DNA of 64,000 nucleotides from assembly GCA_033763455.1 (NCBI GenBank), contig JANRKO010000073.1:32001-96000 (forward strand). The letters run 5' to 3'. The notes under the pieces are model-generated. The model had not been told where the DNA came from. It ran no database searches and worked only from the letters and a program-made list of their open reading frames with translations. Shown one piece after another: positions 6,898-40,788 of this stretch. The stretch's first letter is position 1. Each line of letters begins with the position of its first letter. Origin of the DNA: Polyangiaceae bacterium. GTDB taxonomy: Bacteria; Myxococcota_A; Polyangia; Polyangiales; Polyangiaceae. The position numbers were made by a program, and so were the translations under genes.

Positions 6898-7719
6898 GTG
6901 ATCTCCAATGTTAGCCCCTCTGTGCCTGGTTCCAGCACTAGCCAGGCGGCTGAACGCCCGGAGGCACGAGATACGGAACGCTTTTCCGCTGAGCTCGTGG
7001 CCCGCGCTGCCCCGCAAACTGTGCGCGCCGTGCGCACCCCGCTGAGTGGCGAACAGGCTGCACAGGCCCTGGATCGAGCCTGGCAGCAGGTGATGGGAGA
7101 AAAGCCAAGCGAAGAGACGAAAGCCATTCTCACCGCGCAGTGGGCACACGAAACTGGTCGCGGCAGCGCAATGATGAACTTCAATTTTGGTGGACTAAAA
7201 GGCAGCTCGCCAACGGGCTTCGGTACCACCTACACAACGCACGAGGGCTGGGGAAAGTCGGAAGTGAAGATCGTGGATCGCTTTCGCGCCTACCAAACAG
7301 CTGACGAAGGTGCGGCGGACTACGTTGCCTTGCTAAACCGCCGTTACCCTGGAGCTATAGAGGCGGCGAAGTCTGGAGATCCGGCGAAATTCGTGCGTGA
7401 GCTGAAACAGGCGCGTTACTTCACCGGCAATGAAGGCGCCTACGTAAAGTCAGTCTCAAGCTTGGCACAAGCGGCCCTCGCGAGTGGCTTTACCTCGCTC
7501 GGTGGAACCAACGCCGAAACCTCTAGCTTTCCCACGTTCCTGGCGCAGTCCCCGTTGAACGGCGGGGTCGCCTACGCCGATGCCTTCAACGGAACTCTAC
7601 CCGGAGGCCCGCTCGATACACTTTCGTTCACAGGCGTCGAAGCCATCGCGGATGAAGTCGGAAGGGCCGCACTTCGCGATGCAACCGAGCGCAAGGCTGA
7701 CGAAAACCGTCGGGGATAG
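6898..7719 (+). CDS. GH73 glucosaminidase/muramidase (stand-alone FlgJ-type catalytic domain)
   Basis: AQWAHETG, NFGGLKG, T.HEG, FRAY...DY..LL..RY and YFT motifs typical of GH73; at the flagellar cluster border. Start 6898 (GTG) or 6856. Confidence 0.8.
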   Translation: MISNVSPSVPGSSTSQAAERPEARDTERFSAELVARAAPQTVRAVRTPLSGEQAAQALDRAWQQVMGEKPSEETKAILTAQWAHETGRGSAMMNFNFGGLKGSSPTGFGTTYTTHEGWGKSEVKIVDRFRAYQTADEGAADYVALLNRRYPGAIEAAKSGDPAKFVRELKQARYFTGNEGAYVKSVSSLAQAALASGFTSLGGTNAETSSFPTFLAQSPLNGGVAYADAFNGTLPGGPLDTLSFTGVEAIADEVGRAALRDATERKADENRRG

Positions 7720-7745
7720 CTGCCCCCGAGCCCTTGTGCCTACGC

Positions 7746-8891
7746 CTACGACTGAGGCCGCGCATATTGCCCAACCCGGGCTAGGATCTCGCTCGCCTGC
7801 TCGCGCTCGCCGGCCTCTGTAAGGTGGCGAGCAAGAGCTGCACCTACGGCTTGGTTGTCCGGGGCAAGAGCGTGTGCCATGCGCCACGCGCTCACCGTAT
7901 CTCGATGCTCCAGCGCTTCGGCAACGGTCGCGAGGCAAGTAACCGCTACCCTGCTCGCAGGATCCAGTTCCACCGCCGAACGCGCGAGCTCGAGCGCTTC
8001 ATATCCGCGGCCAAGCCGGGCCTGAAGCCTCGCCAGAAGCGCCATAGCGCGAGGATCTTCCGGGGCTTTGCCCTTGAGTTCGAAGTAACAGGCAGAAGCT
8101 TCTGCAAACATCCCAAGCTCTTCAAAAAGTGTCCCCAGGCGGAGCTCCGCCTCGCATGCAAGGGCTGCATCACCCGAGCGCCGAGCTTGCTCGAAATGGC
8201 CCTCGGCCACCTCGTGCAGCCCACGCTGACAAGCCCTATCCCCTGCTTCAACAACCTCATACGCGTTGCCTTCGCGACAACCTGCCACGCATGCAACAAA
8301 GCCCGAACCTTCGCCGAACCATCGTTTTGCCACTAACCCCGAAATGCTGAGCAACTGCTGAAGCTCTCCACGGCTGAACGCTCGCCGCGCTGGCGCCGAT
8401 AGTTGTTGCGTTGGGTGTGCCAGCGGCTCCGCGATCCACACGAACGAAGAGGCACGAAGTTGCCGGCGCACGTTGCGCATGACCGCTACTGGATCGACGA
8501 CGTGCCCCAGCACATCCACCAAAACTGCAACATCTGCATCCGGCAACACCGAGCCTAAGGCTGCATCCCCCCGAACGAACGACGCCCGAGGTGCCCATTC
8601 CCGCGCAAAGGCTAACGCCGCCCCATCAATATCCACCCCCACCACGCGTTCGCTCCGGGAAGCCAACACCAGAGCGCCAACTCCGGCCCCCGTCCCCACG
8701 TCGAGCACACGTGCCGTCGGCGGCAATGACTGGCCAATAGTGCTGTAGATTGCACTCGTATCCGGTGCGTGTGAACGCACGCCTGGGTAACGCCGCGTAC
8801 GGCTGGCATGAAGCTGCACCGCAGCACCCGAGGCGAAGTGTGCCCAGTATTCCCCCGGCCGTTCGCCTCGAACCAGCGTTGGCTGCTTCAA
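7746..8891 (-). CDS. Class I SAM-dependent methyltransferase with C-terminal TPR repeats
   Basis: VLDVGTGAG motif I, GVDID motif, then TPR-like helices. TTG start 1 nt after the fliS stop. Confidence 0.75.
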   Translation of the reverse strand: MKQPTLVRGERPGEYWAHFASGAAVQLHASRTRRYPGVRSHAPDTSAIYSTIGQSLPPTARVLDVGTGAGVGALVLASRSERVVGVDIDGAALAFAREWAPRASFVRGDAALGSVLPDADVAVLVDVLGHVVDPVAVMRNVRRQLRASSFVWIAEPLAHPTQQLSAPARRAFSRGELQQLLSISGLVAKRWFGEGSGFVACVAGCREGNAYEVVEAGDRACQRGLHEVAEGHFEQARRSGDAALACEAELRLGTLFEELGMFAEASACYFELKGKAPEDPRAMALLARLQARLGRGYEALELARSAVELDPASRVAVTCLATVAEALEHRDTVSAWRMAHALAPDNQAVGAALARHLTEAGEREQASEILARVGQYARPQS

Positions 8892-8892
8892 G

Positions 8893-9315
8893 CTACCTAC
8901 CCGAGGCAGCCTTTTCGGCCTGTGCCTTTTCGGCCTGTGCCATCGGCACTGCTTTAATCCAAGCTTCACGCAGGGGTGTCAACACACGGATAACGTCTTC
9001 CACAGCTTTACGATCACTACGAATACTGGCTTGCATCAGGCGATCGAGGCAATAATTGTAGACGCTGCCGAGGTTCGCGCAAAGCTCCGGCGCCTTCGAC
9101 TCATCAAGCGCGACGTAGAGTTCTGAGATGATCGCATGCGCCTTCCTAAGCTGCTGGCTTGCGAGGCCCTTCTTCTGCTCATCGATACAACGCAGGGCGG
9201 TGTTCAAGAAGCGAAAGAGCCCTTCATAGAGGGCCAATAGCAACTCTCCTGGTGATGCCGTCTGGGTTTGAACTTCGTGGTATCTTTGAACTGGGCTGCG
9301 ATACGCTTGGTGCAT
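8893..9315 (-). CDS. fliS: Flagellin chaperone FliS
   Basis: Y..VQ..TASP..LLL.LY, ELC.NL...Y.Y and L..LREAW motifs; downstream of fliD. Confidence 0.95.
   Translation of the reverse strand: MHQAYRSPVQRYHEVQTQTASPGELLLALYEGLFRFLNTALRCIDEQKKGLASQQLRKAHAIISELYVALDESKAPELCANLGSVYNYCLDRLMQASIRSDRKAVEDVIRVLTPLREAWIKAVPMAQAEKAQAEKAASGR
8911..8940. repeat. Perfect 15-bp tandem duplication in fliS 3' end (AQAEK x2)
   Basis: CTTTTCGGCCTGTGC twice. Confidence 0.85.
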
Positions 9316-9364: not shown

Positions 9365-10678
9365 TTAGGCGATCTGTTTGAGCAACGCTTGGTTCTTGGC
9401 AACAGCACTGTCCATTTCGGTAAACTGCTTACGGAGCGTTTCTGTGTATCTCGCTATTCTGGCGCTTTCGCGAGAGATGTGCTCTTCCAGCGCCTTTGCG
9501 CGTGTCTCAAGCCCTGTCCTACGGACGCTTAGTAAGCCTGTCTTCGGATTGGTGAGATCGTCAATCGCGCTTCTGAAGCGATCCATCATGCCGGTGGTGC
9601 CGGGACCACCCGCGAATAGCTTTACGAATTCCGCAGGACGGCTGCTGAGCGCGCTGTCAAACTTCGAATCACTCAACGTGAGCTTGCCAGTGCGATCGAT
9701 CGATACGCCAACATCGGCCAACCGATCCAGGGTACCGCCGAGGCCGGCTGCTCCGGTGGCCAGTGAGGAAAGCTTCGATAATGTACCCCGCAAGCCGGAA
9801 TCTCCTGCGAGTGCTGCGTTTTGCGCCTTGGTGGTGCCAAACCCTGCCAGATTGTGGACCTTATCCACCACCGCATTGTAGGCGCTCACGAACGCACTCA
9901 CTTTGGCCTTTGTCGCTGCTGGATCGGCATCAATGCGCAAGGTGATGGGAGCTGTGGTTTTCGCCGTGAGCGCAAGGCTCACACCCGGAATAGCACCATC
10001 GATCTTGTTGGTCGCACTGCTCACAGGAATGTTATCGATCTTAACGATGGCATTCTGTGCGGCTTGGGCCGGCACTACCCCCTGAAGACCGAGCGCTGTG
10101 CCACTTTCGCTGAATGTAATATTGTTGGCAGCTCCGCTATCGAGACCTCGAATCAGCAACGAATAGTTCGTACCGTCATTGAAAATCGAAGCTGAAACCC
10201 GTAAACCCGAGCTATTGATCTTGTTGGTGATGCTCTCCAACGAATCAGCCGTATCAATGTTGATGGTCGCGGCAGGGCCAGTGCCCACCTGAATATTGAA
10301 CGAACCGGTTTGGTTGAGGCCAACCACCTTGGAAGAGTAGGCAGTTGAGTAGCTGCGCTGCTCTGAGGCAAGCTGCGTAACTTCGAGATTGTACGTCGAA
10401 GCCTGGGCCACACCCGTCGTCGTTGCGACAACTTGCGCGCCGGAAGACGTCGCCGTGAAGCTGCTCACCGAACGTTCATCATAGAGTGCGCCTGCAGCCG
10501 TTTTTAGCTTTGAAAGCAGCCCGGATATGTCCCCCACCGAAGATATCGCCGCGCGAGTGTCAGCGACTTTCTGCTGCGTAGGCTGAAGGCTCGCTTTCTC
10601 GACATTCACCAGGCCACTGATGATGCCCTCAACGTCCATCCCGGAGCCAATTCCTCCAAATGTAATAGCAGCGGGCAT
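9365..10678 (-). CDS. fliD: Flagellar filament cap protein FliD
   Basis: GIGSGMD N-terminus, V.QLA, LAGDS, C-terminal LRKQFTEMD. Confidence 0.96.
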   Translation of the reverse strand: MPAAITFGGIGSGMDVEGIISGLVNVEKASLQPTQQKVADTRAAISSVGDISGLLSKLKTAAGALYDERSVSSFTATSSGAQVVATTTGVAQASTYNLEVTQLASEQRSYSTAYSSKVVGLNQTGSFNIQVGTGPAATINIDTADSLESITNKINSSGLRVSASIFNDGTNYSLLIRGLDSGAANNITFSESGTALGLQGVVPAQAAQNAIVKIDNIPVSSATNKIDGAIPGVSLALTAKTTAPITLRIDADPAATKAKVSAFVSAYNAVVDKVHNLAGFGTTKAQNAALAGDSGLRGTLSKLSSLATGAAGLGGTLDRLADVGVSIDRTGKLTLSDSKFDSALSSRPAEFVKLFAGGPGTTGMMDRFRSAIDDLTNPKTGLLSVRRTGLETRAKALEEHISRESARIARYTETLRKQFTEMDSAVAKNQALLKQIA

Positions 10679-10702: not shown

Positions 10703-10739
10703 AAAAGAAAGCCCGACCGCAGATCCTACGGCCGGGCTT
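10703..10739 (-). terminator. Rho-independent terminator between fliC and fliD
   Basis: Minus strand AAGCCCGGCCGTAG-GAT-CTGCGGTCGGGCTT followed by TCTTTT. A second hairpin (GAGTGGT...ACCACTC) lies at 10760-10786. Confidence 0.75.
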
Positions 10740-10794: not shown

Positions 10795-11628
10795 TTAACC
10801 TCGGAGGAGGCCGAAAGCCATCTGGGGCAACTGGTTGGCTTGCGACAACACAGAAACACCAGCTTGCGTGAGAACTTGATTGCGGCTCATGGTCGCAGTT
10901 TCCGTGGCGACATCTACGTCGCGGATACGGGAGTTAGCAGCCGAGAGGTTCAAGCTCATGGTTTGGACGGTTGCGGATGAAACGTCCAAGCGGTTCATCG
11001 CGGCACCGAAGCGTGCGCGAGCCGTGGAGACTGTGTCGATCGCCGTGTTGAGCGCGGTGATGGACGCGTAGGCGTTGGTTTCGTCTGCGCCCGTGAGGCT
11101 GATGCCCGCCGTAACGCCCGACAAATCCACGTTGTCGAAGTTCACGGTCACAGAATCGCTGGCGGCTGTGCCGATGCCGACCTGGAACTTCGTGGCGGCG
11201 GCTGCACCGGCACCAATGAGCGATTTGTTGTTAAAAGTAGCTGCGCCCTGGATGCGGGTAATTTCACCCTGAAGCTCCGTGAATTCCGTTTGGAGGTAAG
11301 CACGGTCTGCAGTTGCCAGCGAACCGTTCGAAGCTTGGACGGCCAGCTCCTTCATGCGGCTCATTACGCCGTGAATTTCGCCGAGCGCGCCTTCAGCCGT
11401 TTGCGCCATCGAAACGCCATCCAGAGCGTTGCGCTGGGCCACTGCATAAGAACGAATGTCGCTCTTCATGTGTTCGCTGATCGCTAACCCTGCGGCGTCG
11501 TCAGCTGCGGTATTGACTCGAAAACCGCTGGAAAGCTTCTGGAAGCTCGAATTCAGCTGGGCTTGGTTAGTGGAGAGGTTCTTCTGAGCCGAGAGGGCAG
11601 AGAAGTTGGTCTGAATATACATTGCCAT
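10795..11628 (-). CDS. fliC: Flagellin (short, 277 aa)
   Basis: LSSGFRVNTAADDAAGLAIS, RMKELAVQ, FQVG, SRIRDVDVA...QVLTQAG...QANQLPQ. Confidence 0.98.
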   Translation of the reverse strand: MAMYIQTNFSALSAQKNLSTNQAQLNSSFQKLSSGFRVNTAADDAAGLAISEHMKSDIRSYAVAQRNALDGVSMAQTAEGALGEIHGVMSRMKELAVQASNGSLATADRAYLQTEFTELQGEITRIQGAATFNNKSLIGAGAAAATKFQVGIGTAASDSVTVNFDNVDLSGVTAGISLTGADETNAYASITALNTAIDTVSTARARFGAAMNRLDVSSATVQTMSLNLSAANSRIRDVDVATETATMSRNQVLTQAGVSVLSQANQLPQMAFGLLRG

Positions 11629-11706: not shown

Positions 11707-11733
11707 TGAGCGGCTGGGCAGTTCAATACTTGA
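11707..11733 (-). promoter_or_regulatory. sigma28 (FliA) promoter of fliC
   Basis: TCAAG-N14-GCCGCTCA; the same architecture recurs before flgM. Confidence 0.75.
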
Positions 11734-11741
11734 ATCAAATC

Positions 11742-12098
11742 TCAGGATGTTAGGGCTAAAGCGCGCTCTTGCAGACGCTCGGAGACAGCTGCCACCGTGT
11801 CGTGCTCGCTACTCGCGCGCTCCGCGATAACCTTGGCGATATACTCGGCCGCTTCCCGATTCGGGATGGGTTTTTCCAGCACGGCGCGACGCGCTTGGCT
11901 CATGGCCTCGGCCAGCTTGGTGATCTGGGTGAAAGCCGTCTCCATCGCGGGAGTTTGGGGTGCTCCCTCGGTATGCGCAGAGACGCCCATCGCGGACAAA
12001 GCCTCGGCGGCTTGGTGGAAGAACTGAACTGCCTCGTGGACCTTTGCCTCAGAATGCAACGTAGTCTGAAGCGGCGTGGATGTATGTCGGACGTTCAC
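11742..12098 (-). CDS. Hypothetical helical protein with weak resemblance to flagellin C-terminus
   Basis: 118 aa ORF filling the csrA-fliC gap on the operon strand; AAGGA upstream of GTG. Confidence 0.6.
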   Translation of the reverse strand: MNVRHTSTPLQTTLHSEAKVHEAVQFFHQAAEALSAMGVSAHTEGAPQTPAMETAFTQITKLAEAMSQARRAVLEKPIPNREAAEYIAKVIAERASSEHDTVAAVSERLQERALALTS

Positions 12099-12212: not shown

Positions 12213-12581
12213 TTATGTGAGTGGGCATATTTCCTCCTCTTTTACTCCTACCCGAATCGAGGGTGCTGGCACCCGCTGGGCTTCACGCGGCTCGTTTGAC
12301 ACAAGCCCAATTTTCTCGTTCGCCGCCCCGGTCGTTTTCGCACTGGAACCGACAAAGGCAGCCAAATTTTCGGTGGCCACCGCTCCCTCCTGCGAAGCCG
12401 TTTCCGTAGCCGCGCGATTTGCCAAAAGGATCGCTTCCCGAATCTCCCCACGCAACACACGCGTGCCTCTAGGAGCTGAGATCGCCACCTTCACTACACT
12501 GCGTGAAAGCTCAGAGATGACGATCTCGACGTCGTCTCCGATGAAGATGCTTTCATTCTTTTTGCGCGCGATGATTAGCAT
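12213..12581 (-). CDS. csrA: Carbon storage regulator CsrA with C-terminal extension (FliW-type)
   Basis: MLIIARKKNESIFIGDDVEI...AP....VLRGEI...ANRAA; start corrected to ATG 12581. Confidence 0.93.
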   Translation of the reverse strand: MLIIARKKNESIFIGDDVEIVISELSRSVVKVAISAPRGTRVLRGEIREAILLANRAATETASQEGAVATENLAAFVGSSAKTTGAANEKIGLVSNEPREAQRVPAPSIRVGVKEEEICPLT

Positions 12582-12588
12582 GGAGGCC

Positions 12589-13464
12589 TCAAGGTTCGAA
12601 GCGCCGAAGTGATAGGTTTCGCTTAGCCACGGCCAGCGATTGCTCAATGGCATTTTGGACGCTCACAAGCTCTGACATAGCTTCAGAGGCATCGGCTTCG
12701 CCGAGCACAGCCTTTCGCGTTTTGAGCGCCACATCCCCCTGGTCGAGCGCGGATTCGCTGATGCTGAGCCGATCGAGTAACAGACCCGCATCGGCTCGAG
12801 AGCGAACGATCTGGGAATGGGCGTTTCTGATGTTGTCGAGCGTTGCAATAACCGCCGCTTGATCGTTAGTCGAAAGTGCAGTGGCTAGGGCATCCAAGAC
12901 ATCGAATGGATTGACGCCTCCTGCCGCGGTGAAGGCTTTGGCACCGTCAATGGCCACGTTGACCACGTGGTTGGTTCCGAGCTCCACGTTGTGCGGGTCA
13001 GAATTTCCAGCAAAAGCACCGGTATTCGCAAAGGGCACCGTATCGGTGGCACTTCCAGAGAACAAGAACCCGTTCGGACCGCGTGTGTTGGCCATGCTCA
13101 CGAGCTGGTCGCGGAGGCCAGAAATTTCAATTGCCATGGAGGCACGTTCGCTGGCACTCAACGTACCATTGGCGCCCTGCACGGCTAACTCTTGTGCGCG
13201 TTCAAAAAGTGCAGAGGCTTCGCTCAATACCCCTTCTGCGAGCTCTGCGTCGCCACGCGCAGCTCCAATATTAGAACGAAACCCTTCAGCCCGGCTGACC
13301 GCGTGACGGAGCTTCGCGATCTCTGCCGCCGCACGGGGATCTGTACTTGGGCTGGTGACCCGATATCCAGAGCTCACTTCGGCCGCAGCTTTGGCATGCC
13401 GAGCCGTGAGGCTCGCCAAGTTGGCGGAAATCGCTGAATAATTCGCACTATCAGGAACTCTCAT
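12589..13464 (-). CDS. flgL: Hook-associated protein 3 FlgL
   Basis: SSGYRV..PS.DP, ELAVQGANGT, ANT....FLFSG; follows flgK. Confidence 0.93.
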   Translation of the reverse strand: MRVPDSANYSAISANLASLTARHAKAAAEVSSGYRVTSPSTDPRAAAEIAKLRHAVSRAEGFRSNIGAARGDAELAEGVLSEASALFERAQELAVQGANGTLSASERASMAIEISGLRDQLVSMANTRGPNGFLFSGSATDTVPFANTGAFAGNSDPHNVELGTNHVVNVAIDGAKAFTAAGGVNPFDVLDALATALSTNDQAAVIATLDNIRNAHSQIVRSRADAGLLLDRLSISESALDQGDVALKTRKAVLGEADASEAMSELVSVQNAIEQSLAVAKRNLSLRRFEP

Positions 13465-14852
13465 CGGCCTAACCTCTGTATCAACTCATCGAGCAATTGA
13501 TCGACGGTCTGTAGGACCTTGGTGGAGGCCTCGTACGCACGTTGGTACTGCGTGAGCGAAATCATCTCTTCATCCAAGGAGACCCCGCTCACCGTTTCCC
13601 GTAGGTCTTTCGCTTGCGCTTTTAGGGCCTCTTGTGTCGCCGCCGTGCTCGCTGCTCCCGCCTTGAGCTGGCCAACTTGACCGAGCAGCGCGGCAAAATC
13701 CTCGGCTGGCGTACGTGTGCCGCCTCCGGACACGGCTTGCGCGGAAATTTTCGATATCGAAAGCGCGTTATCAGCTCCTCCGGGAAGCGCAGCCGCCGAA
13801 CTCGAAGCAGCCAATCGCTCGGGATGCCCCACGAGCTGGGCATCAATAGACAAGCTGCGCGCGGCTCCCGCAACCGTGGGCGACACGCTGAACAGATTGC
13901 GGCCGTTGATCCCATCGAGCCCAAAACCCGCTGCGTGCTGGGTGTTCACGGCGGTGGCGATGTCGTACGCGAAATTATCAAGCCGGGTCGCAATGGTAGT
14001 GAGGTCGCTGTCGCGCACTTGAAAAATGCCGTCGAGCGTGCCGCCTGAAAGCCCTGAGGTAGCGTCCATTGCTGGCCCGCCGGAACGCTGCGCCATGAGC
14101 TTGAGCGCGCCATTGCTGTCGACATCAATGCCGAGCGCGCGAGCAACATCCCCATCGATCAGCGTGGCGCCTGCGGCTTGGACGGTGATGCGTCCGGATT
14201 CGGCCGTAATCACGTTGATATTGACCTTCTCGCTCAGCTGCTGGAGCAAGGTATTGCGCTGATCTTTTAAATCAACAGCGTCTGAACCCGCATTCTCAGC
14301 CGCCTCTATCTGCTGATTAATCTTGGCAATGTTGGTAGCAAGATCGTTAACTACCTTTACAACGCTGCTAGCTTGGGTCGCGAGATCCGTCCGGAGCGTA
14401 GCCACGGTGTTCGCTGTATCCCGCACTTGGGCCGCGAACACATCCGCAGACGCTAACGCTTGCGCTCGTGTCGTAGGATCGTTGGGTCGAGCCGCAAGGG
14501 TCGAAAACGAGGTAAAAAACTGATCCATGGCGCCACCCATGCGCGCCCCAAGGGTCTCATCGAAAAGGCCATCGATCTGCGCCAGCTGCTGATCGCGTTC
14601 ATTCGCGGAGGAAGAGAGCCCTGATTTGTCAAAGTACCGCTGTTCAAGGAAACGGTCTGTGATACGGCGCACTTCAACCGCGTCGACACCGCCATAAGCT
14701 CCCGGCCCATAGGGACGAGGCTCTAGGATTACGGCACGACGCGCGTAACCGGGCGTATTGACGTTGGCAATGTTTTGCCCGGTCGTCTGAAGGCCACGCG
14801 AGTGTGCCTGCAAAGCATCGCGCGACGTGTAGAGGATTGAAAACAGACCCAT
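13461..14852 (-). CDS. flgK: Hook-associated protein 1 FlgK
   Basis: GQNIANVNTPGYARR, L.DQR, SGVSLDEEM..L..YQRAY.A. Confidence 0.96.
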   Translation of the reverse strand: MGLFSILYTSRDALQAHSRGLQTTGQNIANVNTPGYARRAVILEPRPYGPGAYGGVDAVEVRRITDRFLEQRYFDKSGLSSSANERDQQLAQIDGLFDETLGARMGGAMDQFFTSFSTLAARPNDPTTRAQALASADVFAAQVRDTANTVATLRTDLATQASSVVKVVNDLATNIAKINQQIEAAENAGSDAVDLKDQRNTLLQQLSEKVNINVITAESGRITVQAAGATLIDGDVARALGIDVDSNGALKLMAQRSGGPAMDATSGLSGGTLDGIFQVRDSDLTTIATRLDNFAYDIATAVNTQHAAGFGLDGINGRNLFSVSPTVAGAARSLSIDAQLVGHPERLAASSSAAALPGGADNALSISKISAQAVSGGGTRTPAEDFAALLGQVGQLKAGAASTAATQEALKAQAKDLRETVSGVSLDEEMISLTQYQRAYEASTKVLQTVDQLLDELIQRLGR

Positions 14853-31481: not shown

Positions 31482-31498
31482 ATAGGAAGGCGTTGGAC

Positions 31499-33655: not shown

Positions 33656-34443
33656 ATGACGTCCAAAACATATTCTCAACGCTCGTCCAGGCGGAAATTC
33701 TCGCCTTTTCGTTTCAAACCGCGCGCATTTCGGGTGCTCTCATTACCGCCCCCTTGCCTTGGGCCCACGCCCCCGTTCGGTTCCGAGCCGCCCTCGCGAT
33801 CGCCCTCGGGCTTGTGGCTCATGGCGCAAGCCGCGCAGCACCGGAGGTTATCAACGGCGCCCCCTTGGCGCTGGCGCTCGCCGGGTTTTCGGAGTTAATG
33901 CTCGGAGCCGCAATCGGATTTGTAGTGCGGCTCACCGTGGCTGTAGCCGAGATTATGGCTAGCGCCATCTCTCCCAGTATCGGTCTTGGCGCTGCAGAAA
34001 TTTTTAGCCCGGGCTTTGGCAACGAGAACCTCCTAGGCCAATTCCTACGACTTTTCGCCATTTCAGGCGCTCTAATATTGGGCGTACATCGCCAGCTTCT
34101 GGGCTCTTTGCTTTCGAGCTTTCGAGTGATCCCGCCGGGCACCTTGCTGAACCCAGCACCACTTGGGCCTGTGCTTTTGGAGCTTACAAGCGGAGCCATT
34201 GAGACGGGAGTGCGTTTATCATTGCCGATCCTGGCGGTGCTGTTCGTTATCCAATTGGCACTCGCGTTCATTTCCCGCGCAGCACCCGCCATGCAAATTT
34301 TCTCGGTGGGGTTTGCGGTCACCATCATCTCGGGCATGGCGGTGATCGTCATTTTCCTGCCGGAGCTGAGCCAAGACCTCCTCGGCGATGCTTCCCACGT
34401 GCCAGATCGAATTGGGCAAATTTTAAGAGCCGTGGTGCGCTGA
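33652..34443 (+). CDS. fliR: Export gate FliR
   Basis: E...G...GF, SRAAP.M.IF.VGF; multiple TM segments. Confidence 0.93.
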   Translation: MNDVQNIFSTLVQAEILAFSFQTARISGALITAPLPWAHAPVRFRAALAIALGLVAHGASRAAPEVINGAPLALALAGFSELMLGAAIGFVVRLTVAVAEIMASAISPSIGLGAAEIFSPGFGNENLLGQFLRLFAISGALILGVHRQLLGSLLSSFRVIPPGTLLNPAPLGPVLLELTSGAIETGVRLSLPILAVLFVIQLALAFISRAAPAMQIFSVGFAVTIISGMAVIVIFLPELSQDLLGDASHVPDRIGQILRAVVR

Positions 34444-34444
34444 C

Positions 34445-35509
34445 GTGGCCGAGTCAGATACCGAAAAAACACTCGAACCAACTCCAGAACGAGTACAAAA
34501 AGCCCGTGAAGAGGGCCAATTCGCGCGTAGCCGTGACGGCGGAGCTACAGCGGCATCTGTGGCTGTGTTGGGATGTTTGATCGCCCTTGGCACGAACCTG
34601 AGCGAGATCTTGCGCGAGTTTTCGCTCATCTGCTTTACAAGCCCGGCACACGTTTTCGATGCGTCATTCTCAGCCATCGCTTCACAGATGCTGTTGGCGC
34701 TCGTGAAGCTCATTCTGCCAATTGCTGTGGCAGGAGCCCTGGCGGGGACGGCCGTTGGCTTTCTGGAAGCTGGCTTTCACCCTTCGTTCGAACTGGTCGC
34801 ACCCAAGTGGGAGCGCCTCGATCCGATCAGCAAGCTGAAGAACATGTTCTCCTTCAAGGAAGCCGCCACGGGTACACTGCTCAGCTTGTTCCGAGTGGGC
34901 GCCGTGGGAATGGTGGCTTACTGGGTAATTCGCGCCGATTTGCCCACCCTCATCAAACTGAGTCGCACCAGCCTAGGCGCCGGTGCGCACGGCGCCATCC
35001 AGGTTTCGATCCGCCTCGCGTTTTGGTCAAGCTTTGTGCTCGTGATCATGGCGGCAGCTGATTACGCGCAGTCTTGGTGGCGCCAACGCCAGGAACTTCT
35101 AATGTCGCGCGAAGAAATGCGCGAGGAAATGAAGCAGCAGGAAGGTAGCCCTGAAATCAAGGCCCGGCGCCGACAACTCGCTCGCGACCTTTTGAATCGT
35201 GGCCTCTCGCGCGGTGTGCGCGAAGCCGACGTTATCATTGTTAATCCGACTCACGTATCGGTGGCGCTTCGTTATCGTGCCGACAGGGGGGCCCCAATCG
35301 TGACGGCTAAAGGCTACGATGAAGTGGCTCTCCACATCCGACAACTCGCCAAACAGTACGAAGTTCCCCTTGTCGAGAACATACCTCTCGCGCGTGCACT
35401 CGCCGCCCAGGTAAAGGTGGGAAAGATGGTGCCGGTGGACCTGTACGGCGCCGTCGCCGAGGTCTTGGCCTTCGTATATCGTATGAAGAACCGGGGCTTG
35501 AAGGCGTAG
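34445..35509 (+). CDS. flhB: Export switch protein FlhB
   Basis: EKT..PT, EG.P.IK, intact NPTH autocleavage site, L..AVAEVL. Confidence 0.96.
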   Translation: MAESDTEKTLEPTPERVQKAREEGQFARSRDGGATAASVAVLGCLIALGTNLSEILREFSLICFTSPAHVFDASFSAIASQMLLALVKLILPIAVAGALAGTAVGFLEAGFHPSFELVAPKWERLDPISKLKNMFSFKEAATGTLLSLFRVGAVGMVAYWVIRADLPTLIKLSRTSLGAGAHGAIQVSIRLAFWSSFVLVIMAAADYAQSWWRQRQELLMSREEMREEMKQQEGSPEIKARRRQLARDLLNRGLSRGVREADVIIVNPTHVSVALRYRADRGAPIVTAKGYDEVALHIRQLAKQYEVPLVENIPLARALAAQVKVGKMVPVDLYGAVAEVLAFVYRMKNRGLKA

Positions 35510-35539
35510 GCAGGAGTCATACCTTTACCGCAAGTGAGT

Positions 35540-35554
35540 TGGCACAGCTCTCGC
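35540..35554 (+). promoter_or_regulatory. sigma54 promoter of flhA-flhF-fliA-flgF-fliW
   Basis: TGGCAC-AGCTC-TCGC, ending 14 nt before the flhA GTG. Confidence 0.75.
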
Positions 35555-35567
35555 TAAGCGGCTCCTC

Positions 35568-37655
35568 GTGGCAGCGAGCGACCCTTTAAGTAAGCCGTCC
35601 GGCTCAGACAATTTGGGTGAATTGGTCGTCCCGCTCGCGGTTGTCTGCATCGTCCTCATGATGGTGCTGCCTCTACCACCTTTCTTGGTGGATTTTCTGC
35701 TGGCAGTGAGCCTGGCGTCCGCTATCGGCGTATTCCTGATCGGGTTATTCATGGAAGAGCCGCTGCAATTCAGCGCTTTTCCTGCCGTAATTCTGATTTC
35801 CACGCTGCTTCGTCTGGCGCTCAACGTGGCCACCACGAGGCTCATCCTACTGCATGGCGCTGAAGGTGGCGGGGCGGCAGGCAAAGTGGTGGAGACATTT
35901 GGCCGCTTTGTCGTGGAGGGAAATGTAGTTGTTGGGCTCGTGGTGTTCTTCATCCTCGTTGTCATCAACTTCGTGGTGATCACCAAAGGTGCGGGCCGCG
36001 TAGCTGAAGTTGCAGCTCGTTTTGCTCTCGACGCCCTGCCTGGCAAGCAGATGGCTATCGATGCTGAGCTCAATAGCGGCACGATTGACGCCGCGACGGC
36101 TCGCAAGAGAAGGCAGGATTTGGGCCGAGAAATGGACTTTTTCGGCGCCATGGACGGCTCGAGCAAGTTTGTAAAAGGCGACGCGATTGCCGGCCTTCTC
36201 ATTACCGGCATCAACCTCATCGGTGGCCTCTTAATCGGTATTTCCTCGGGCATGGACGTGGGGAAAGCAGCAGAAACCTTCTCTGTTCTGTCTGTCGGTG
36301 ACGCGCTGGTTTCGCAGATGCCCGCGCTCATGATCTCCACCGCCTCGGGCGTCGTAGTGACCCGTTCGGCTACCGGCATGCAGCTCGGCACAGCCATGCG
36401 AAAGCAGGTCCTCGGAAGTCGCCGAGCCATTGGCGCCACCGCCGGTCTTTTGACGCTGATGGCACTGGTGCCAGGAATGCCAGCGATCCCCTTCCTCCTT
36501 CTCGCTTCGGTGCTCGGCTATGGCGCTTATACTGGCAAGTTCGAGATCAAAGAGGCTCCGCCGCCACCCGTCGCCACCACCACCGACACGCCCCCGAGTC
36601 CGCAAGACGAGCTGGAAGCCGCGCTTGCCCTAGAGGTCCTCACCCTCGAGGTTGGGTACGAGCTTGTCCAAGCTGTGGACCCCTCCATGGGAGGTACAGT
36701 GGTGGACCGCATCAGCGCACTCAGAAAGCAATCCGCAGCCGAGCTAGGCATTGTGGTGCCTCCCGTCCACATCAAGGACAATCTTCAGCTGCCTCCAGGC
36801 GATTACCGCATCTTGCTCTTGGGCACTGAGATCGCCAGGGGCTCGACACGCGCCGGCAGACTGTTGGCGCTGGATTCGTCTGGGGAGATGCCAGATGTGC
36901 CCGGTGAGGTCACCAAGGAGCCGGCTTTTGGCACGCCCGCCAAGTGGATAGCCCGTGGTGATAAAGAGTTTGCCGAAGCGCTCGGCTACATTGTCGTGGA
37001 TCACGCCACGGTCATTGCCACTCATTTGGCCGAAATTGTGCGCCGTCATGCTCACCAGGTGCTCGGCCGTGCAGGGCTCACCCACCTGTTGGAGGTATTT
37101 AGCAAAACCACTCCGAAGCTCGTCGATGAGTTGGTCCCGAATTTGCTCTCCTTCGCTGAAGTGACGACCGTAATGCGAAATTTGCTCAAGGAGGGTGTTT
37201 CAATTCGAGACTTGCGCACCATCCTCGAGACGCTCGTCGAGCTGTCCCCTTCAACCCGCGACACCGAACAGCTCACCGAGGCGACCCGCCAACGCCTTTC
37301 CCGACAGATTACGGCAGCATATGCCGACGGCGAGGGCACGCTCTCACCCCTGGTGCTCGACACCGCCATCGAGGACATGTTCCGCCGTTCGCTGCGCGAA
37401 ATTGCGGCTGGGACTGGCGGCGCACTCGACCCGGCGGTCACCCGCGATCTCGGCAATGCGCTAGAGCTCGCCGTCAAGAACATGGAACGCGCCGGGCGTC
37501 GAGCCTGCCTCGTCACCAGCCCCGACCTCCGCCGCTATGTGCGCGCGTTTGCAGAGCGGCGGTGCCCCACTCTTGCTGTGCTTTCCTTCCGAGAGATTGA
37601 AGCCAGCTCCAACATCATTCCCTTTGAAGTCGTATCGGCCGCTCCGCGCGCCTAG
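35568..37655 (+). CDS. flhA: Export gate FlhA
   Basis: RLALNVATTR, RVAEVAARF.LDA.PGKQMAIDA, FFGAMDG.SKFVKGDAIAG. Confidence 0.98.
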   Translation: MAASDPLSKPSGSDNLGELVVPLAVVCIVLMMVLPLPPFLVDFLLAVSLASAIGVFLIGLFMEEPLQFSAFPAVILISTLLRLALNVATTRLILLHGAEGGGAAGKVVETFGRFVVEGNVVVGLVVFFILVVINFVVITKGAGRVAEVAARFALDALPGKQMAIDAELNSGTIDAATARKRRQDLGREMDFFGAMDGSSKFVKGDAIAGLLITGINLIGGLLIGISSGMDVGKAAETFSVLSVGDALVSQMPALMISTASGVVVTRSATGMQLGTAMRKQVLGSRRAIGATAGLLTLMALVPGMPAIPFLLLASVLGYGAYTGKFEIKEAPPPPVATTTDTPPSPQDELEAALALEVLTLEVGYELVQAVDPSMGGTVVDRISALRKQSAAELGIVVPPVHIKDNLQLPPGDYRILLLGTEIARGSTRAGRLLALDSSGEMPDVPGEVTKEPAFGTPAKWIARGDKEFAEALGYIVVDHATVIATHLAEIVRRHAHQVLGRAGLTHLLEVFSKTTPKLVDELVPNLLSFAEVTTVMRNLLKEGVSIRDLRTILETLVELSPSTRDTEQLTEATRQRLSRQITAAYADGEGTLSPLVLDTAIEDMFRRSLREIAAGTGGALDPAVTRDLGNALELAVKNMERAGRRACLVTSPDLRRYVRAFAERRCPTLAVLSFREIEASSNIIPFEVVSAAPRA

Positions 37656-37685
37656 TGGATTTGAAGCAACCTGGAGGCCCCAATC

Positions 37686-38771
37686 GTGCAGTATCAAACG
37701 TTTCGAGGAAGCGATCTAAAAGAAGCCATCTCTCTGGTTCGTGCGGCGTTCGGCAGCGACGCCGTCATCGGAGCGACCCGTTCGGTACGTCGGAACAAGG
37801 GTCCTCTTTCCAAGCCCTATGTGGAGGTTGCAGCCGCTCCAGCTCCGGACGAACCGCGGCGAGAAGCAGCGTCGCCGCGTCCCGTACGTGCGCGCAAAAA
37901 CGGACAGTCTTTCCGCCCGGCAGCACCCAGCCAACAACAGGGCCTCCTGGAGCGAGAACTTCGAGTTCTCCGTTCTATGGTGGATGAGCTCAGCGCCGAA
38001 CGTGCGCCGCACCAACGCGCGGAGGCTTTGCTCCACAACGCCGGAATTGAGGGCTCACTCGCAAAGCTATTGGCGAATGGTGCAGAAGCTAACGCTCGCG
38101 GCGGCAGCCCCGCCCTTATTCGCTTTCTGCGACAACGTCTCTCGGGAGCGCTCGGGTTTGCGGCGGATCCGCTAGAACAAGCCGGGCCGCGGCTTATCAC
38201 CTGCATTGGCCCTAGCGGTGCCGGCAAAACCACCACGTTGGCCAAGTTGGCGGCTCGAGCGCGGCTAGAGAAGAAGCGCAGCGTGAGTGTCATAACGCTG
38301 GATACGTTCCGTGTGGGAGCCGTGGCGCAATGGCAACGCTACGCGCAGCTTCTTGGCATTCCCGTGGGTGTTGCGCACGATGTTGCTAGCTTTCGTCGAC
38401 TGCTCAATGACCGCGGTGACGATCTTGTGCTCGTCGACACGGCCGGCCGAAGCGCGGATAACGCGTCGCAAGACGCGAGAGTCAGCGAATGTCTGGCTCA
38501 AGCTGCCATCCCTGTGGATGTGCTCTTGGTGGTGCCTGCGTGGCTCAGGGCACGTGACGTAGAACGTGTCACAGAGGTGTACGCGACCCCACCCGCCACC
38601 GGAATTGTAATTTCCAAGCTCGACGAAACTGATTGCATCGGGGGCAGCCTACATGCAGCCCTCGGGAAGAACTTGCCCCTCACGTACTTATGTGATGGGC
38701 CGCGTGTGCCGGAGGACATTCAAGCCGCCTCTCTCAATCGAATTCTGGACGCCCTTCTTCCGAGCATCTGA
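37686..38771 (+). CDS. flhF: SRP-family GTPase FlhF
   Basis: GPSGAGKTTT, DTFR.GA, DTAG, SKLDE, G..VPED. Confidence 0.93.
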   Translation: MQYQTFRGSDLKEAISLVRAAFGSDAVIGATRSVRRNKGPLSKPYVEVAAAPAPDEPRREAASPRPVRARKNGQSFRPAAPSQQQGLLERELRVLRSMVDELSAERAPHQRAEALLHNAGIEGSLAKLLANGAEANARGGSPALIRFLRQRLSGALGFAADPLEQAGPRLITCIGPSGAGKTTTLAKLAARARLEKKRSVSVITLDTFRVGAVAQWQRYAQLLGIPVGVAHDVASFRRLLNDRGDDLVLVDTAGRSADNASQDARVSECLAQAAIPVDVLLVVPAWLRARDVERVTEVYATPPATGIVISKLDETDCIGGSLHAALGKNLPLTYLCDGPRVPEDIQAASLNRILDALLPSI

Positions 38772-39529
38772 TGCGTCAACCGACCACATCCATTGAGCTT
38801 CTTCCCGTAAGGGGCAGCGCCGAAGCTCACGCCGACTTGGTCGATCGGTACATGCCGCTCGTGCGGCGTATTTCCATGCGTGCGGTGCGAAAACTGCCTC
38901 CGTCTATCACCGTGGATGATCTGGTCAGCGCCGGCTGGGTAGGCTTGCTAGAAGCGTTCGACCGGCGCACCCCAGAGATGAACGAAGAGCAGTTTGAGGC
39001 GTATGCCTCACATCGCGTGCGCGGTGCGATATTGGATTACCTGCGCTCCCTCGATCCAATGGGGCGCAAAATGCGATCGGCATCGCGACGCATTGTCCAG
39101 ACCATGAGCGAGCTCACGGCGAGCCTGGGCCGTGCACCTGAAACCGAAGAGGTCGCTCGCGCACTCGGACTTACTCTGGATGATTACCACTCGCTTCTCA
39201 CGGACATTTCCGAGGCGGGCTCCGCCAGGTTGGAGCTCTCAGAGGTCGCTGAGCCAGCTTCACCCGACGCTTCCCCGGAAGCTCAAGCTGGGCGGCGTGC
39301 CGAAGTTGGTTCTGTCGCCGAAGCCGTTGAGCAACTGCCCGAGCGCCTTCAGCTAATTCTCGGGCTCTACTACCAGGAAGACTGCTCTTTCCGCGAAATC
39401 GGAGAAGTTTTGGATATTTCAGAATCCCGCGCTTGCCAGCTTCACATTGAAGCCATTCACCGTATTCGAGCCACCCTTCACGGCCGCGCCTATCGGCGAG
39501 GCTCATTGGGTAAGAGTGTGTACGTATGA
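38771..39529 (+). CDS. fliA: RNA polymerase sigma28 FliA
   Basis: DL.S.G..GL, RVRGAILD.LR..D, LYY.E....EIG.VL..SESR..QLH. Confidence 0.93.
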   Translation: MRQPTTSIELLPVRGSAEAHADLVDRYMPLVRRISMRAVRKLPPSITVDDLVSAGWVGLLEAFDRRTPEMNEEQFEAYASHRVRGAILDYLRSLDPMGRKMRSASRRIVQTMSELTASLGRAPETEEVARALGLTLDDYHSLLTDISEAGSARLELSEVAEPASPDASPEAQAGRRAEVGSVAEAVEQLPERLQLILGLYYQEDCSFREIGEVLDISESRACQLHIEAIHRIRATLHGRAYRRGSLGKSVYV

Positions 39530-40254
39530 GTAGCGGGATCTGGTCAGCCGCTTCAGGCGCTATTGGGCACCTCGCTTCGTTAGACGTTACCGCCAACAAT
39601 TTGGCTAATGCGTCAACCGCCGGGTTCCAGGGAGACCGCGCGGTGTTTCAACAAGTGCTCGCTCAGAAGCAGCTAGCAGGCGCCGCCTCCGAATACCGAC
39701 AGTACTCGCTGGTCAGCAGCAGGTCCCCAGATCATACGGCGGGCTCTATCACCAGCACAGGCAAAAGCCTCGACGTCGCCATCAATGGGGATGGGTATTT
39801 CGTGGTAAAAACGCCACAGGGCGAACGTTACACGCGTAACGGTGGCTTTTTGGTCATCGGTGGCCAACTGAGCCTTGCGGGGGGACAACGCGTTCTGGAC
39901 GAGGGGCGGAGTCCGATTGAAATCCCCGACAATGAAGCAGATCTCCGGATCGGGGATGACGGCACTGTTTATGCAGGGGCAGAAGCTGTGGGCCAACTAG
40001 CAGTCGTTCGCTTTGCTAACCCTGACGTCATGCAACGTGAGGGAGAGTCACTTTTTCGTGCTCCGAACGGTACGGCTGAAGCCACGGTACCCTCCTTGGT
40101 TACCGAATCGCTGGAAAGCTCCAATGTCTCCGTTGTCAAAAGCATGACGGAGCTCGTGACAGCAACGCGCAGCTTCGACGCAATGCAGCGCATGATCGAC
40201 ACATTCAGTGAAATTGAACGCAAAGCCGCCATGGGCATCATGGGTAACCGTTAA
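39526..40254 (+). CDS. flgF: Proximal rod protein FlgF
   Basis: ANNLANAST.GF, DVAI.GDGYF.V.T..G.RYTRNG, LE.SNV; lacks FlgG FQDLLYQ segment. Confidence 0.88.
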   Translation: MSSGIWSAASGAIGHLASLDVTANNLANASTAGFQGDRAVFQQVLAQKQLAGAASEYRQYSLVSSRSPDHTAGSITSTGKSLDVAINGDGYFVVKTPQGERYTRNGGFLVIGGQLSLAGGQRVLDEGRSPIEIPDNEADLRIGDDGTVYAGAEAVGQLAVVRFANPDVMQREGESLFRAPNGTAEATVPSLVTESLESSNVSVVKSMTELVTATRSFDAMQRMIDTFSEIERKAAMGIMGNR

Positions 40255-40293
40255 TCCGGATTCCAAATCAAGCCAAACTGGAGAGATGATAAC

Positions 40294-40788
40294 ATGAACA
40301 TTATTAGCAAAAGATTCGGGAAGGTCTCGTTTGAAGAGGATGCCGTCATCAACTTCCCCCACGGCATTATCGGCTTCCCCGAAGCCAAGAAATATATCCT
40401 GCTTGGCCAGGGCGAAAGTGGTGTCGTCGGTTGGCTTCAGTCCGTGGATGCCCCAGAAATTGCGCTCCCAGTGGCATCGGCACATGCCTTCCCCGCCCCT
40501 TACCCGGACGTTCCACTCACTGACGCAATGCTGGCCGCAGGCATGGAAGCGCCCGGCGAGAACGTGGCCGTTCTTGCGGTAATCATCGCCACACCCGCTC
40601 AAGAGCCGACCGTAAACCTGCTGGCGCCTATCGTCATTGATGCCGACACGCGTCAAGGCGCTCAGGTTATTCTCCAAGGGTCACGCTTCTCGACTCGGGA
40701 ACTTCTGGTCTTCCGAGCAGAGCTTAAGCCAGCAGCTCCCGTCAGCCACGATTCTGCGCCGCGCCTGCGCTCAGCCGCCGACGCCTGA
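40294..40788 (+). CDS. fliW: Flagellar assembly factor FliW
   Basis: RFG, I.FP.GI.GF, WLQS, TVNLLAPIVI, G.QVIL. Confidence 0.93.
   Translation: MNIISKRFGKVSFEEDAVINFPHGIIGFPEAKKYILLGQGESGVVGWLQSVDAPEIALPVASAHAFPAPYPDVPLTDAMLAAGMEAPGENVAVLAVIIATPAQEPTVNLLAPIVIDADTRQGAQVILQGSRFSTRELLVFRAELKPAAPVSHDSAPRLRSAADA

Follow-up and report, generated by a model that had tools for sequence, protein, structure and literature searches.

A chromosomal flagellar gene cluster in an uncultured Polyangiaceae-labelled myxobacterium

The 64-kb stretch of DNA analysed here (hereafter, the window) carries a flagellar gene cluster at positions 6856-40788, which comprises 41 open reading frames (ORFs) on two divergent strands. 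ORFs were assigned with Pfam and NCBIfam, in scans that covered 50, 25 and 36 ORFs. Of the 41 cluster ORFs, 34 match a flagellar family with a score over the curated cut-off or, in the case of FliM, by fold, with CsrA, FlgM and FliA counted in. Four more have weak or indirect assignments: a glucosaminidase equivalent to the C-terminal half of FlgJ, a rod-binding N-terminal piece of FlgJ, an FlgN-like protein and FliJ. One ORF encodes a sigma-54 activator, and two, a methyltransferase-TPR protein and orf118, have no flagellar family. By family assignment, the products would form an export gate (FlhA, FlhB, FliO, FliP, FliQ, FliR) with its ATPase complex (FliH, FliI, FliJ), the MS ring (FliF), the C ring (FliG, FliM, FliN), the P ring (FlgI) and the L ring (FlgH), with FlgA, and a rod (FlgB, FlgC, FlgF, FlgG, FliE). 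They would further supply a hook (FlgE, FlgD and a short FliK), the hook-filament junction (FlgK, FlgL), the flagellin FliC, the cap FliD and the chaperone FliS.

The first gene of the cluster (6856-7719, plus strand) encodes a glucosaminidase-domain protein (Pfam Glucosaminidase, 48.1 bits; NCBIfam FlgJ weak, E 4.7e-6, below cut-off). It is likely a separate peptidoglycan hydrolase that would serve rod passage. The genes that follow, up to position 20626, are on the minus strand. The methyltransferase-TPR protein (7746-8969; Methyltransf_11/25 and TPR) lies downstream of fliS (8893-9315; FliS, 105 bits), which is followed by fliD (9365-10678; FliD_C and FliD_N). The flagellin FliC is short, with 277 amino acids (10795-11628; Flagellin_N and Flagellin_C). 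Its gene closes with a strong intrinsic terminator-like hairpin (10709-10739, minus strand), which has a 14-bp stem then a T run and lies 56 nt past the stop codon. Orf118 (11742-12098) had no family match with an E-value limit of 0.01, nor with one of 5. CsrA (12213-12581; 60 bits over residues 25-75 of the long ORF) has a long C-terminal tail, and its start was refined to the Met where the CsrA domain begins. FlgK (13461-14852) matches FlgK_D1 with 184 bits, while FlgL (12589-13464; Flagellin_N) was named from its position after FlgK. The FlgN-like chaperone (14855-15220; FlgN, E 0.0056, below cut-off) is a weak assignment, and it is adjacent to FlgM, the anti-sigma-28 factor (15264-15551; 39.9 bits). 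The rod-binding protein (15718-16053) corresponds to the N-terminal half of FlgJ only (NCBIfam FlgJ, E 4.5e-8, model positions 17-91; Pfam Rod-binding, E 0.0014). This half of the cluster also includes FlgI (16050-17186; 423 bits), FlgH (17191-17880; 168 bits), the P-ring chaperone FlgA (17877-18611; ChapFlgA) and the distal rod protein FlgG (18614-19399), the start of which was refined to Met47 of a long ORF whose rod domains begin at residue 51. The sigma-54 enhancer-binding protein (19547-20626; Sigma54_activat, 238 bits, and HTH_8) probably starts at Met67 of its long ORF. No receiver domain was detected in it, nor any N-terminal domain at E up to 5.

The second half of the cluster is read from the plus strand. 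It starts with the proximal rod genes flgB (21004-21396; NCBIfam FlgB, 66.9 bits, above cut-off, and Pfam rod domains), flgC (21400-21831; rod domains) and fliE (21837-22169; FliE), followed by fliF (22180-23817; YscJ_FliF and its C-terminal domain) and the rotor gene fliG (23833-24816; FliG_N, FliG_M and FliG_C). The ATPase complex is represented by FliH (24722-25648; FliH), FliI (25641-26966; ATP-synt_ab and T3SS_ATPase_C) and FliJ (26966-27412; FliJ, weak). An FliK-like hook-length protein of only 196 amino acids (27409-27999; Flg_hook, 31.3 bits) precedes the hook cap FlgD (28003-28671; FlgD and FlgD_ig), the hook protein FlgE (28690-29985; FlgE_D2 and rod domains) and FliL (30025-30609; 49 bits). 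FliM (30606-31481) is a divergent, clade-specific form in which Pfam finds only FliMN_C; by fold, the AF2 model of the protein (pLDDT 76) resembles FliM of Salmonella (E 2.4e-14), and its aligned N-terminus has no recognisable CheY-docking sequence. After FliN (31478-31942; FliMN_C, 92.7 bits) comes the export gate, which consists of FliO (31939-32727; FliO), FliP (32727-33389; FliP), FliQ (33386-33655; Bac_export_3), FliR (33652-34443; Bac_export_1), FlhB (34445-35509; Bac_export_2) and FlhA (35568-37655; FHIPEP, 814 bits). The last segment is composed of FlhF, an SRP-type GTPase for flagellar placement (37686-38771; NCBIfam, 177.3 bits, above cut-off), the sigma factor FliA (sigma-28; 38771-39529; NCBIfam, 206.4 bits, above cut-off), the proximal rod protein FlgF (39526-40254; rod domains, named from size and position) and FliW, the CsrA antagonist and flagellin partner (40294-40788; 91.6 bits).

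These ORFs appear intact. Neither a frameshift nor a broken ORF is visible among the 41, and HMM matches cover the large proteins nearly in full (FlhA 1-655 of 657, FlgI 4-343 of 343, FlhB 2-335 of 335). Stop and start codons overlap by 1-8 nt at 14 junctions. No integrase or transposase domain was found among the scanned ORFs, and none flanks the cluster. On these points the description of the locus given in the original prediction stands. No tRNA gene was found, flanking or otherwise. Functional motifs are present, by the definitions that we take to apply: NPTH for autocleavage at residue 267 of FlhB, EHPQ at residue 120 of FliG together with its charged C-terminal helix, the P-loop AGAGVGKS of FliI and the P-loop of FlhF. 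The same prediction spoke of a near-complete structural set. This holds from export gate to cap; however, the Pfam and NCBIfam scans found no motA/motB, flhG, rpoN or che genes in the whole 64 kb.

Two promoter types stand out in the window, sigma-54 and sigma-28, both identified as consensus matches only. Six sigma-54 matches with at most one mismatch were observed against 2.78 expected, and 4 of 100 shuffles also gave as many as six. Five of the six are inside the cluster, and four face flagellar operons. On the minus strand, the perfect -24/-12 match TGGCACCTAGATTGCA is upstream of flgG (19426-19441), and a match with one mismatch (20671-20686) lies 45 nt upstream of the refined start of the activator, a placement that hangs on that inferred start. 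On the plus strand, matches precede flgB (20974-20989, one mismatch) and flgD (TGGCACTGCCCTTGCA, 27888-27903, no mismatch), and another falls in the flhB-flhA spacer (35540-35555, one mismatch). Sigma-28-like promoters are found on the minus strand upstream of fliC (TCAAG-N14-GCCGCTCA, 11707-11733) and flgM (TCAAG-N14-GCCGTTCA, 15643-15669), the refined pattern having been derived from the same two sites that it then finds. Promoters had been described as readable, which is borne out for these two types but not for sigma-70-type matches, which are at or below chance expectation (4 against 5.4 expected; 3 against 3.9). From these parts and motifs, the receiver-less activator would switch on early and middle operons through the -24/-12-type sites before flgB, flgG, flgD and flhA; FliA and FlgM would control late-gene release through the sites before flgM and fliC; FliW and CsrA may adjust how much flagellin is translated. 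The presence of FlhF points to a polar position.

The window comes from an uncultured lineage of the Myxococcota, Polyangiaceae or Polyangiales by database label. All 11 relatives of its Rel protein are MAGs, of which 10 are named within the Myxococcota or the delta-proteobacteria and the eleventh is labelled only 'proteobacterium'. The TopA matches that carry organism names (16 of 16, 68-73% identity) are Polyangiaceae, Sorangiineae, Myxococcales or Myxococcota. The commonest label among these relatives is 'Polyangiaceae', as the flanking genes had been predicted to suggest; these labels are the submitters' MAG names and not a genome-wide classification. Two independent MAGs (L001 and L002) share the junction between Rel and the flagellar genes with the window, in the order Rel ... 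metallophosphatase-FliW-FlgF-FliA, which in L002 runs on into FlhF and FlhA. With Rel and TopA about 90% identical to theirs, the window represents a separate genome or species. Cluster and flanks have a common composition: GC3 is 0.636 and 0.657, respectively, the RSCU correlation is 0.97, and the tetranucleotide correlation is 0.969, compared with 0.970 for a flank-versus-flank control. The cluster is chromosomal and syntenic in two MAGs.

Selection on the flagellar genes was compared with that on the flanks. The dN ranges from 0.05 to 0.18 in flagellar genes and from 0.06 to 0.32 in flanking genes. The dN/dS is 0.03-0.10 for flagellar genes (5 of 9 comparisons with computable dS) and 0.027-0.156 for the flanks (16 of 21), ratios that are rough because dS is saturated (at least 1.4, with no value obtainable for 9 of the 30 comparisons). 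With flagellar dN as low as housekeeping dN, the decay that the original prediction had asked about is not seen.

The cluster is not the rarity it was taken for. The best 120 FlhA clusters listed are all at least 67% identical to FlhA of the window, and the organism-named ones (12 of 12) are 'Polyangiaceae bacterium'. The divergent FliM has 136 relatives, and all seven with organism names are Polyangiaceae or Myxococcales. MAGs labelled Polyangiaceae are 67-93% identical in FlhA and 40-79% in FliM, with both genes apparently on the same contig in four cases, to judge from contigs of equal length. When FlhA is clustered at 50%, the whole clade collapses into one representative at 69% identity, and the next families, with labelled members from Nitrospira, Nitrospinota and Parvibaculum, are at 50% or less. 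As FlhA and FliM occur in many such MAGs, flagellar genes are ordinary equipment of the uncultured lineage to which the host belongs. This counts in part against the original prediction, which had named an ordinarily flagellated host lineage as grounds for rejecting it, although the lineage is still labelled Polyangiales. Flagellar assembly genes had already been listed for other Myxococcota MAGs in a preprint.

The cluster is probably an ordinary, long-resident chromosomal regulon for a Gram-negative flagellum, inherited within this broad MAG group rather than recently imported. A recent genomic island, transferred from another phylum into one small genome group, seems very improbable. In L003-L011, the nine Rel relatives at the greater distance of 59-73% identity, the examined DNA near Rel has no flagellar genes and there is no synteny downstream of Rel, a comparison limited to the Rel neighbourhood. 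However, mobility genes, tRNA and a compositional break are all absent, and beyond the immediate group the nearest FlhA relatives among the matches listed are all Polyangiaceae-labelled at 67-72% identity, mirroring TopA; all other FlhA families stay at 50% or below and so reveal no recent donor. It is also quite unlikely that the contig comes from, or is chimeric with, an ordinarily flagellated non-myxobacterium, or that the Polyangiaceae labels are wrong. All relatives are submitter-named MAGs, two Rel relatives carry only 'proteobacterium' or 'delta proteobacterium' labels, and the G+C content of about 58-60% is under that of cultured Polyangiaceae. Against this, the flagellar genes share one 64-kb stretch of uniform composition with Rel, TopA, TrmFO, DprA and MurB, the junction is identical in two MAGs with differing record names, and the Rel, TopA and FlhA labels are concordant.

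A somewhat less improbable, still unlikely reading is that the apparatus is a relic or has been repurposed, so that it would serve in secretion, adhesion or sensing and not in swimming, in a cell that moves by gliding and pili, as cultured myxobacteria glide. The lack of stator and chemotaxis genes in the window, the FliM without its usual docking end and the very short FliK favour it. These features, with flhG and rpoN absent from the window and the weak FlgN, FliJ and FlgJ assignments, also count against a long-resident flagellar regulon. But the hook, junction, flagellin, cap and L and P rings are all intact, and a secretion-only device needs none of them; the charged FliG helix and EHPQ are present, flagellar dN is no higher than housekeeping dN, and stator genes are often apart from flagellar clusters in other bacteria. 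For a resident regulon, MotA/MotB, RpoN, FlhG and the chemotaxis genes would have to sit elsewhere in the genome. The organelle would be built and would rotate; with stator genes absent from the window, motility itself is a prediction.

Campylobacter and Helicobacter have polar flagellar regulons under sigma-54, FlhF, FliA/FlgM and FliW/CsrA. The window has the same regulator set, with sites of the sigma-54 type ahead of genes for rod and hook and one of the sigma-28 type ahead of flagellin. It differs in its host, which is myxobacterial, and in the grouping of almost all genes within a single 34-kb cluster. Further differences are an activator devoid of a receiver domain, the absence of FlhG next to FlhF and an FliM without the CheY-docking end. 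FliW, CsrA and the flagellin gene, with AAGGAG in the flagellin ribosome-binding region, recall the FliW-CsrA-flagellin partner switch of Bacillus subtilis; however, CsrA has about 45 extra C-terminal residues past the Pfam domain, and only one GGA motif, a putative CsrA target, is evident in the flagellin leader. Two further points of comparison are the AglRQS gliding motor of Myxococcus xanthus, from the same phylum, and type III secretion systems of the non-flagellar kind. The latter share homologous export-gate families (FliP/Q/R, FlhA/B, FliO) with the window, whereas the window adds the rod, hook, L and P rings, junction, flagellin and cap, which define a flagellum and are missing from non-flagellar systems. 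Type III secretion is also mentioned in one paper (PMC12248157).

The cluster, which is not new to databases, contradicts the textbook picture of myxobacteria as gliders without flagella, a picture drawn from cultured members.

The flagellar cluster occupies positions 6856-40788, where the ORF listing and the family scans gave 41 ORFs, within a window of uniform G+C content (0.56-0.63). The cluster is laid out as two divergent blocks. The minus-strand block, which spans 20626 down to 7746, begins with a sigma-54 activator that is followed by FlgG, FlgA, FlgH, FlgI and the rod-binding N-terminal piece of FlgJ. It continues with FlgM, an FlgN-like protein, FlgK, FlgL, CsrA and orf118, and it ends with FliC, FliD, FliS and a methyltransferase-TPR protein. 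The plus-strand block, which spans 21004-40788, starts with FlgB, FlgC, FliE, FliF, FliG, FliH, FliI and FliJ. A short FliK, FlgD, FlgE, FliL, FliM and FliN make its middle part, and FliO, FliP, FliQ, FliR, FlhB, FlhA, FlhF, FliA, FlgF and FliW its last part. For 34 of the 41 ORFs, there is either a flagellar family match that passes the curated cut-off or support from the fold, which bears out the original prediction of a flagellar gene cluster. The other seven consist of four weak or indirect cases, the sigma-54 activator and two ORFs without an assignment. No ORF in the cluster is interrupted, as had been predicted from the lack of visible frameshifts, and the large proteins are covered by HMMs nearly end to end. 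The overlapping stop/start junctions that had also been described number 14, as counted from the ORF coordinates.

Apart from the stator, the structural parts of the organelle are represented. The six export gate proteins FlhA, FlhB, FliP, FliQ, FliR and FliO scored above the Pfam cut-off with near full-length coverage. In the MS and C rings, FliF, FliG and FliN were identified by Pfam, and FliM by its C-terminal Pfam domain together with a fold match. All of the axial parts (FlgB, FlgC, FlgF, FlgG, FliE, FlgE, FlgD, FlgK, FlgL, FliC and FliD) were identified, as were the P ring protein FlgI (423 bits) and the L ring protein FlgH (168 bits), both by Pfam; FlgA is also there. FlhB has an NPTH motif, FliG has EHPQ along with a charged C-terminal helix, and FliI and FlhF each have a P-loop, all of which we take to be functional motifs. 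FlgJ is found in two parts. The rod-binding piece (15718-16053, minus strand) lies inside the flgI operon, and the other part, a glucosaminidase gene (6856-7719, plus strand), is the leftmost gene of the cluster and is on the opposite strand. The FliK-like hook-length protein (27409-27999, plus strand) has just 196 amino acids; since its ORF is packed tightly between fliJ and flgD, it is not truncated. The SAM-methyltransferase-TPR fusion (7746-8969, minus strand) adjoins fliS and has no flagellar assignment. Between csrA and fliC, orf118 (11742-12098, minus strand) has no family match at E up to 5.

The set had been described as near-complete. This holds for the structural parts, but the window is without MotA/MotB, FlhG and chemotaxis genes. 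No MotA_ExbB, MotB or OmpA domain was found in any scanned ORF of the 64-kb window, and family scans of the window found no FlhG, RpoN or chemotaxis genes. The MinD-like gene flhG is usually located between flhF and fliA. Here, fliA directly follows flhF with a 1-nt overlap (37686-39529, plus strand), and flhG does not lie between them. Genes for the stator, RpoN and chemotaxis presumably lie elsewhere in the genome, outside the window, and we infer swimming, like the assembly and rotation of the organelle, from the genes only.

The switch protein FliM has diverged. The only Pfam match of its ORF (30606-31481, plus strand) is the FliM/FliN C-terminal domain, and at the sequence level it matches residues 34-288 of Salmonella FliM weakly (E 0.021). 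A homologue search with this protein gave 136 relatives. Among the 120 that were listed, all 120 carry the C-terminal Pfam domain alone, and the organism-named ones are Polyangiaceae or Myxococcales MAGs (7/7). In an alignment of the window protein with 33 of the listed relatives, the conserved region opens with an invariant LDLTGRER, which corresponds to the start of the middle domain. The leader that precedes this motif has 0-50 residues in the relatives, is variable in length and is not conserved. No sequence similar to the CheY-docking peptide in its generally known form was found in this alignment. An AlphaFold model built from the same alignment (pLDDT 76, pTM 0.66) matched Salmonella FliM with an E of 2.4e-14, and it matched the middle domains of the Thermotoga, Helicobacter and Vibrio FliM proteins with a target TM of approximately 0.7 (about 0.72). 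Thus, the C ring is complete, with a switch protein that is a clade-specific variant.

The regulatory signals were scanned in the same DNA. The sigma-54 consensus TGGCAC-N5-TTGCW, with at most one mismatch, gave six matches against 2.78 expected, a number reached in 4 of 100 shuffles. Five of the six are inside the cluster, and four of them face flagellar operons at sensible distances, upstream of flgG (19426-19441), flgB (20974-20989), flgD (27888-27903) and flhA (35540-35555). With up to two mismatches, the scan was uninformative (44 matches against 38.5 expected), and the one-mismatch set was used. The sigma-54 activator, encoded by a long ORF (19547-20824, minus strand), combines AAA+ and HTH_8 domains, and neither a receiver nor any other sensory domain was found at its N-terminus at E up to 5. 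The ORF probably starts at its Met67. The fifth sigma-54 match in the cluster lies 45 nt ahead of this probable start, which hints that the activator may be autoregulated. The enterobacterial sigma-28 consensus, with three mismatches allowed, gave 41 sites against 27 expected. Two of these sites, located upstream of fliC and of flgM, share TCAAG-N14-GCCGnTCA; the recovery of both with the refined pattern is circular, since the pattern was built from them. Matches to sigma-70-type promoters were not above chance. A terminator with a 14-bp stem lies 3' of fliC, and the ribosome-binding site in the fliC leader contains AAGGAG. FliW and CsrA, a well-known partner pair, are both encoded in the cluster, and the fliC leader holds one GGA, within the Shine-Dalgarno region. 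In the CsrA ORF (12213-12653, minus strand), the CsrA domain corresponds to residues 25-75 and is followed by about 45-70 residues of low complexity at the C-terminus, a tail much longer than is usual for CsrA proteins.

The host had been described as Polyangiaceae-like, and the labels of the relatives of two housekeeping proteins encoded in the flanks, Rel and TopA, agree with this. A Rel search of species-representative genomes gave 11 loci, all from MAGs, which are labelled Polyangiaceae (3), Polyangiales (3), Myxococcota (1), Myxococcaceae (1) and Myxococcales (1), with two others labelled 'delta proteobacterium' and 'proteobacterium'. Thus, 9 of 11 are named within Myxococcota. In the Rel tree, the window groups with the two closest loci, L001 and L002, with 100% SH-aLRT support, beside six other such MAGs. 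For TopA, all 16 organism-named matches, at 68-73% identity, are in Myxococcota; 13 are labelled Polyangiaceae and the others Myxococcota, Sorangiineae or Myxococcales. Both placements rest on the depositors' own labels. An Rfam scan of the 64-kb window gave no matches, and thus no rRNA gene.

A chimeric assembly, a recent import and a decaying remnant were the alternatives considered. The conserved gene order speaks against a chimera at the right border, as the order that starts at Rel, passes a metallophosphatase and reaches FliW, FlgF and FliA is shared by L001, L002 and the window. L002 goes on with FlhF and then FlhA, which is 93.5% identical to that of the window. In composition, the cluster resembles its flanks. 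The G+C content by codon position is 0.650/0.476/0.636 in the cluster and 0.653/0.462/0.657 in the flanks, the RSCU correlation between them is 0.97, and their tetranucleotide correlation (0.969) equals that of the flank-versus-flank control (0.970). Family scans of the window ORFs detected neither integrase nor transposase domains, in agreement with the original prediction, and a tRNA scan found no tRNA genes in the window. Decay was assessed against L001 and L002 in 30 comparisons, 9 flagellar and 21 flank. Synonymous sites are saturated, with dS of at least 1.4 or not computable in 9 of the 30, so that dN/dS was dropped as an absolute measure and dN was compared with that of the flanks in its place. 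Flagellar dN (0.05-0.18) is inside the flank range (0.06-0.32). With saturated dS, dN/dS is 0.03-0.10 for the flagellar genes (computable in 5 of 9 comparisons) and 0.027-0.156 for the flanks (16 of 21), and the cluster does not look decayed.

The relatives of FlhA speak for long residence. Each of the best 120 FlhA clusters at 90% identity is at least 67% identical to the window protein, and all 12 that are organism-named are 'Polyangiaceae bacterium'. In a library clustered at 50% identity, the entire group is merged into a single representative (69%). The next FlhA families have at most 50% identity; the organism names among them are Nitrospira, Nitrospinota and Parvibaculum, and the closest outside families (49-50%) bear no organism label. 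Identity within the group is alike for FlhA (67-72%) and TopA (68-73%), although the contigs of the FlhA matches and those of the TopA matches have no length in common by which the two proteins could be linked. Because the FlhA relatives are Polyangiaceae-labelled, the other families are at 50% or below and the spread of FlhA parallels that of TopA, we read the cluster as a probable long-term resident of a broad Polyangiaceae-labelled group, and we see no recent donor. In the nine more distant Rel relatives (Rel 59-73% identical), no flagellar genes were found within the DNA examined around Rel. An empty-site comparison downstream of Rel in these nine loci gave no synteny and no flagellar matches, and gain and loss were not readable from it. 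An ESM Atlas search with FliF returned generic FliF clusters only, with 'Pseudomonadota' or 'Thermodesulfobacteriota' as the commonest taxa, and was uninformative on the origin of the cluster.

Small differences in gene content can be noticed in the flanks, because two features are unmatched in the closest loci. The AAA_28 gene (43741-44343, minus strand) has no counterpart in L001 or L002 over at least half its length, and the DUF1501/DUF1800 pair (45930-48859, minus strand) has no match in L002 3787-4280, the stretch between Rel and a pyridine-nucleotide oxidoreductase gene. Like this pair, a PSD3 (DUF1587) domain (63549-63998, plus strand) sits among housekeeping flank genes; we take the DUF1501, DUF1800 and PSD3 families to be associated with Planctomycetes-type genomes. 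A 540-amino-acid protein (60490-62112, minus strand) has a HARE-HTH domain joined to an Mrr-type restriction endonuclease domain, and a copy in L004, one of the more distant loci, is 52-56% identical.

Previously, flagellar genes in this phylum have been touched on in several sources. Passages of a FliO preprint (PMC12248157) describe Myxococcota genomes with FliO variants that carry LysM or AMIN domains, and FliO in Myxococcota non-flagellar systems. A preprint from 2026, which deals with flagella and type VI secretion, counts Myxococcota among 'motile phyla'. A seamount study (PMC11937823) mentions highly expressed flagellum and pilus genes for Myxococcota and Bdellovibrionota MAGs pooled; two of its supplement files have no occurrence of 'flagellin' or 'flagellar'. 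In contrast, a passage of a blue hole study (PMC12953829) gives its Myxococcales MAGs as being without flagellar assembly genes. Murphy et al. is a further source in print with a part that bears on the subject. Among open-access papers and preprints, we found none that has the flagella of Polyangiales or Polyangiaceae as its main subject. Flagellar clusters in uncultured Myxococcota have been noted in passing and, since many public MAGs of the group carry it, the cluster is not a singular find.

Myxobacteria are textbook gliders, and the myxobacterial gliding motor employs homologues of flagellar stator proteins. Judged by its sequence, the cluster is a well-kept flagellar regulon whose architecture and regulation are ordinary, and it contradicts this picture, which was drawn from the cultured species. 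A tentative reading, to which we give less than even weight, is that the Polyangiales include a large uncultured section of true swimmers. The flagellum would then go back to the ancestor of the order, perhaps of the phylum, and the cultured lineages, which glide and fruit, would have lost it. Control of the motor would also differ, because FliM across the clade lacks a CheY-docking peptide and has in its place a conserved LDLTGRER, the start of the middle domain, behind a variable leader. The value of the finding is tempered by the many public MAGs with such clusters and by an organelle known here through its genes. The two most interesting points are what a FliM without the CheY-docking end means for motor control, and the possible ancestry of the flagellum in the order. 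A well-kept regulon in a Polyangiales-labelled lineage means that the phylum, as known from its cultured species, is seen with a bias, and the cluster provides material to ask if the ancestor of the myxobacteria was a swimmer and in what way swimming gave way to gliding.
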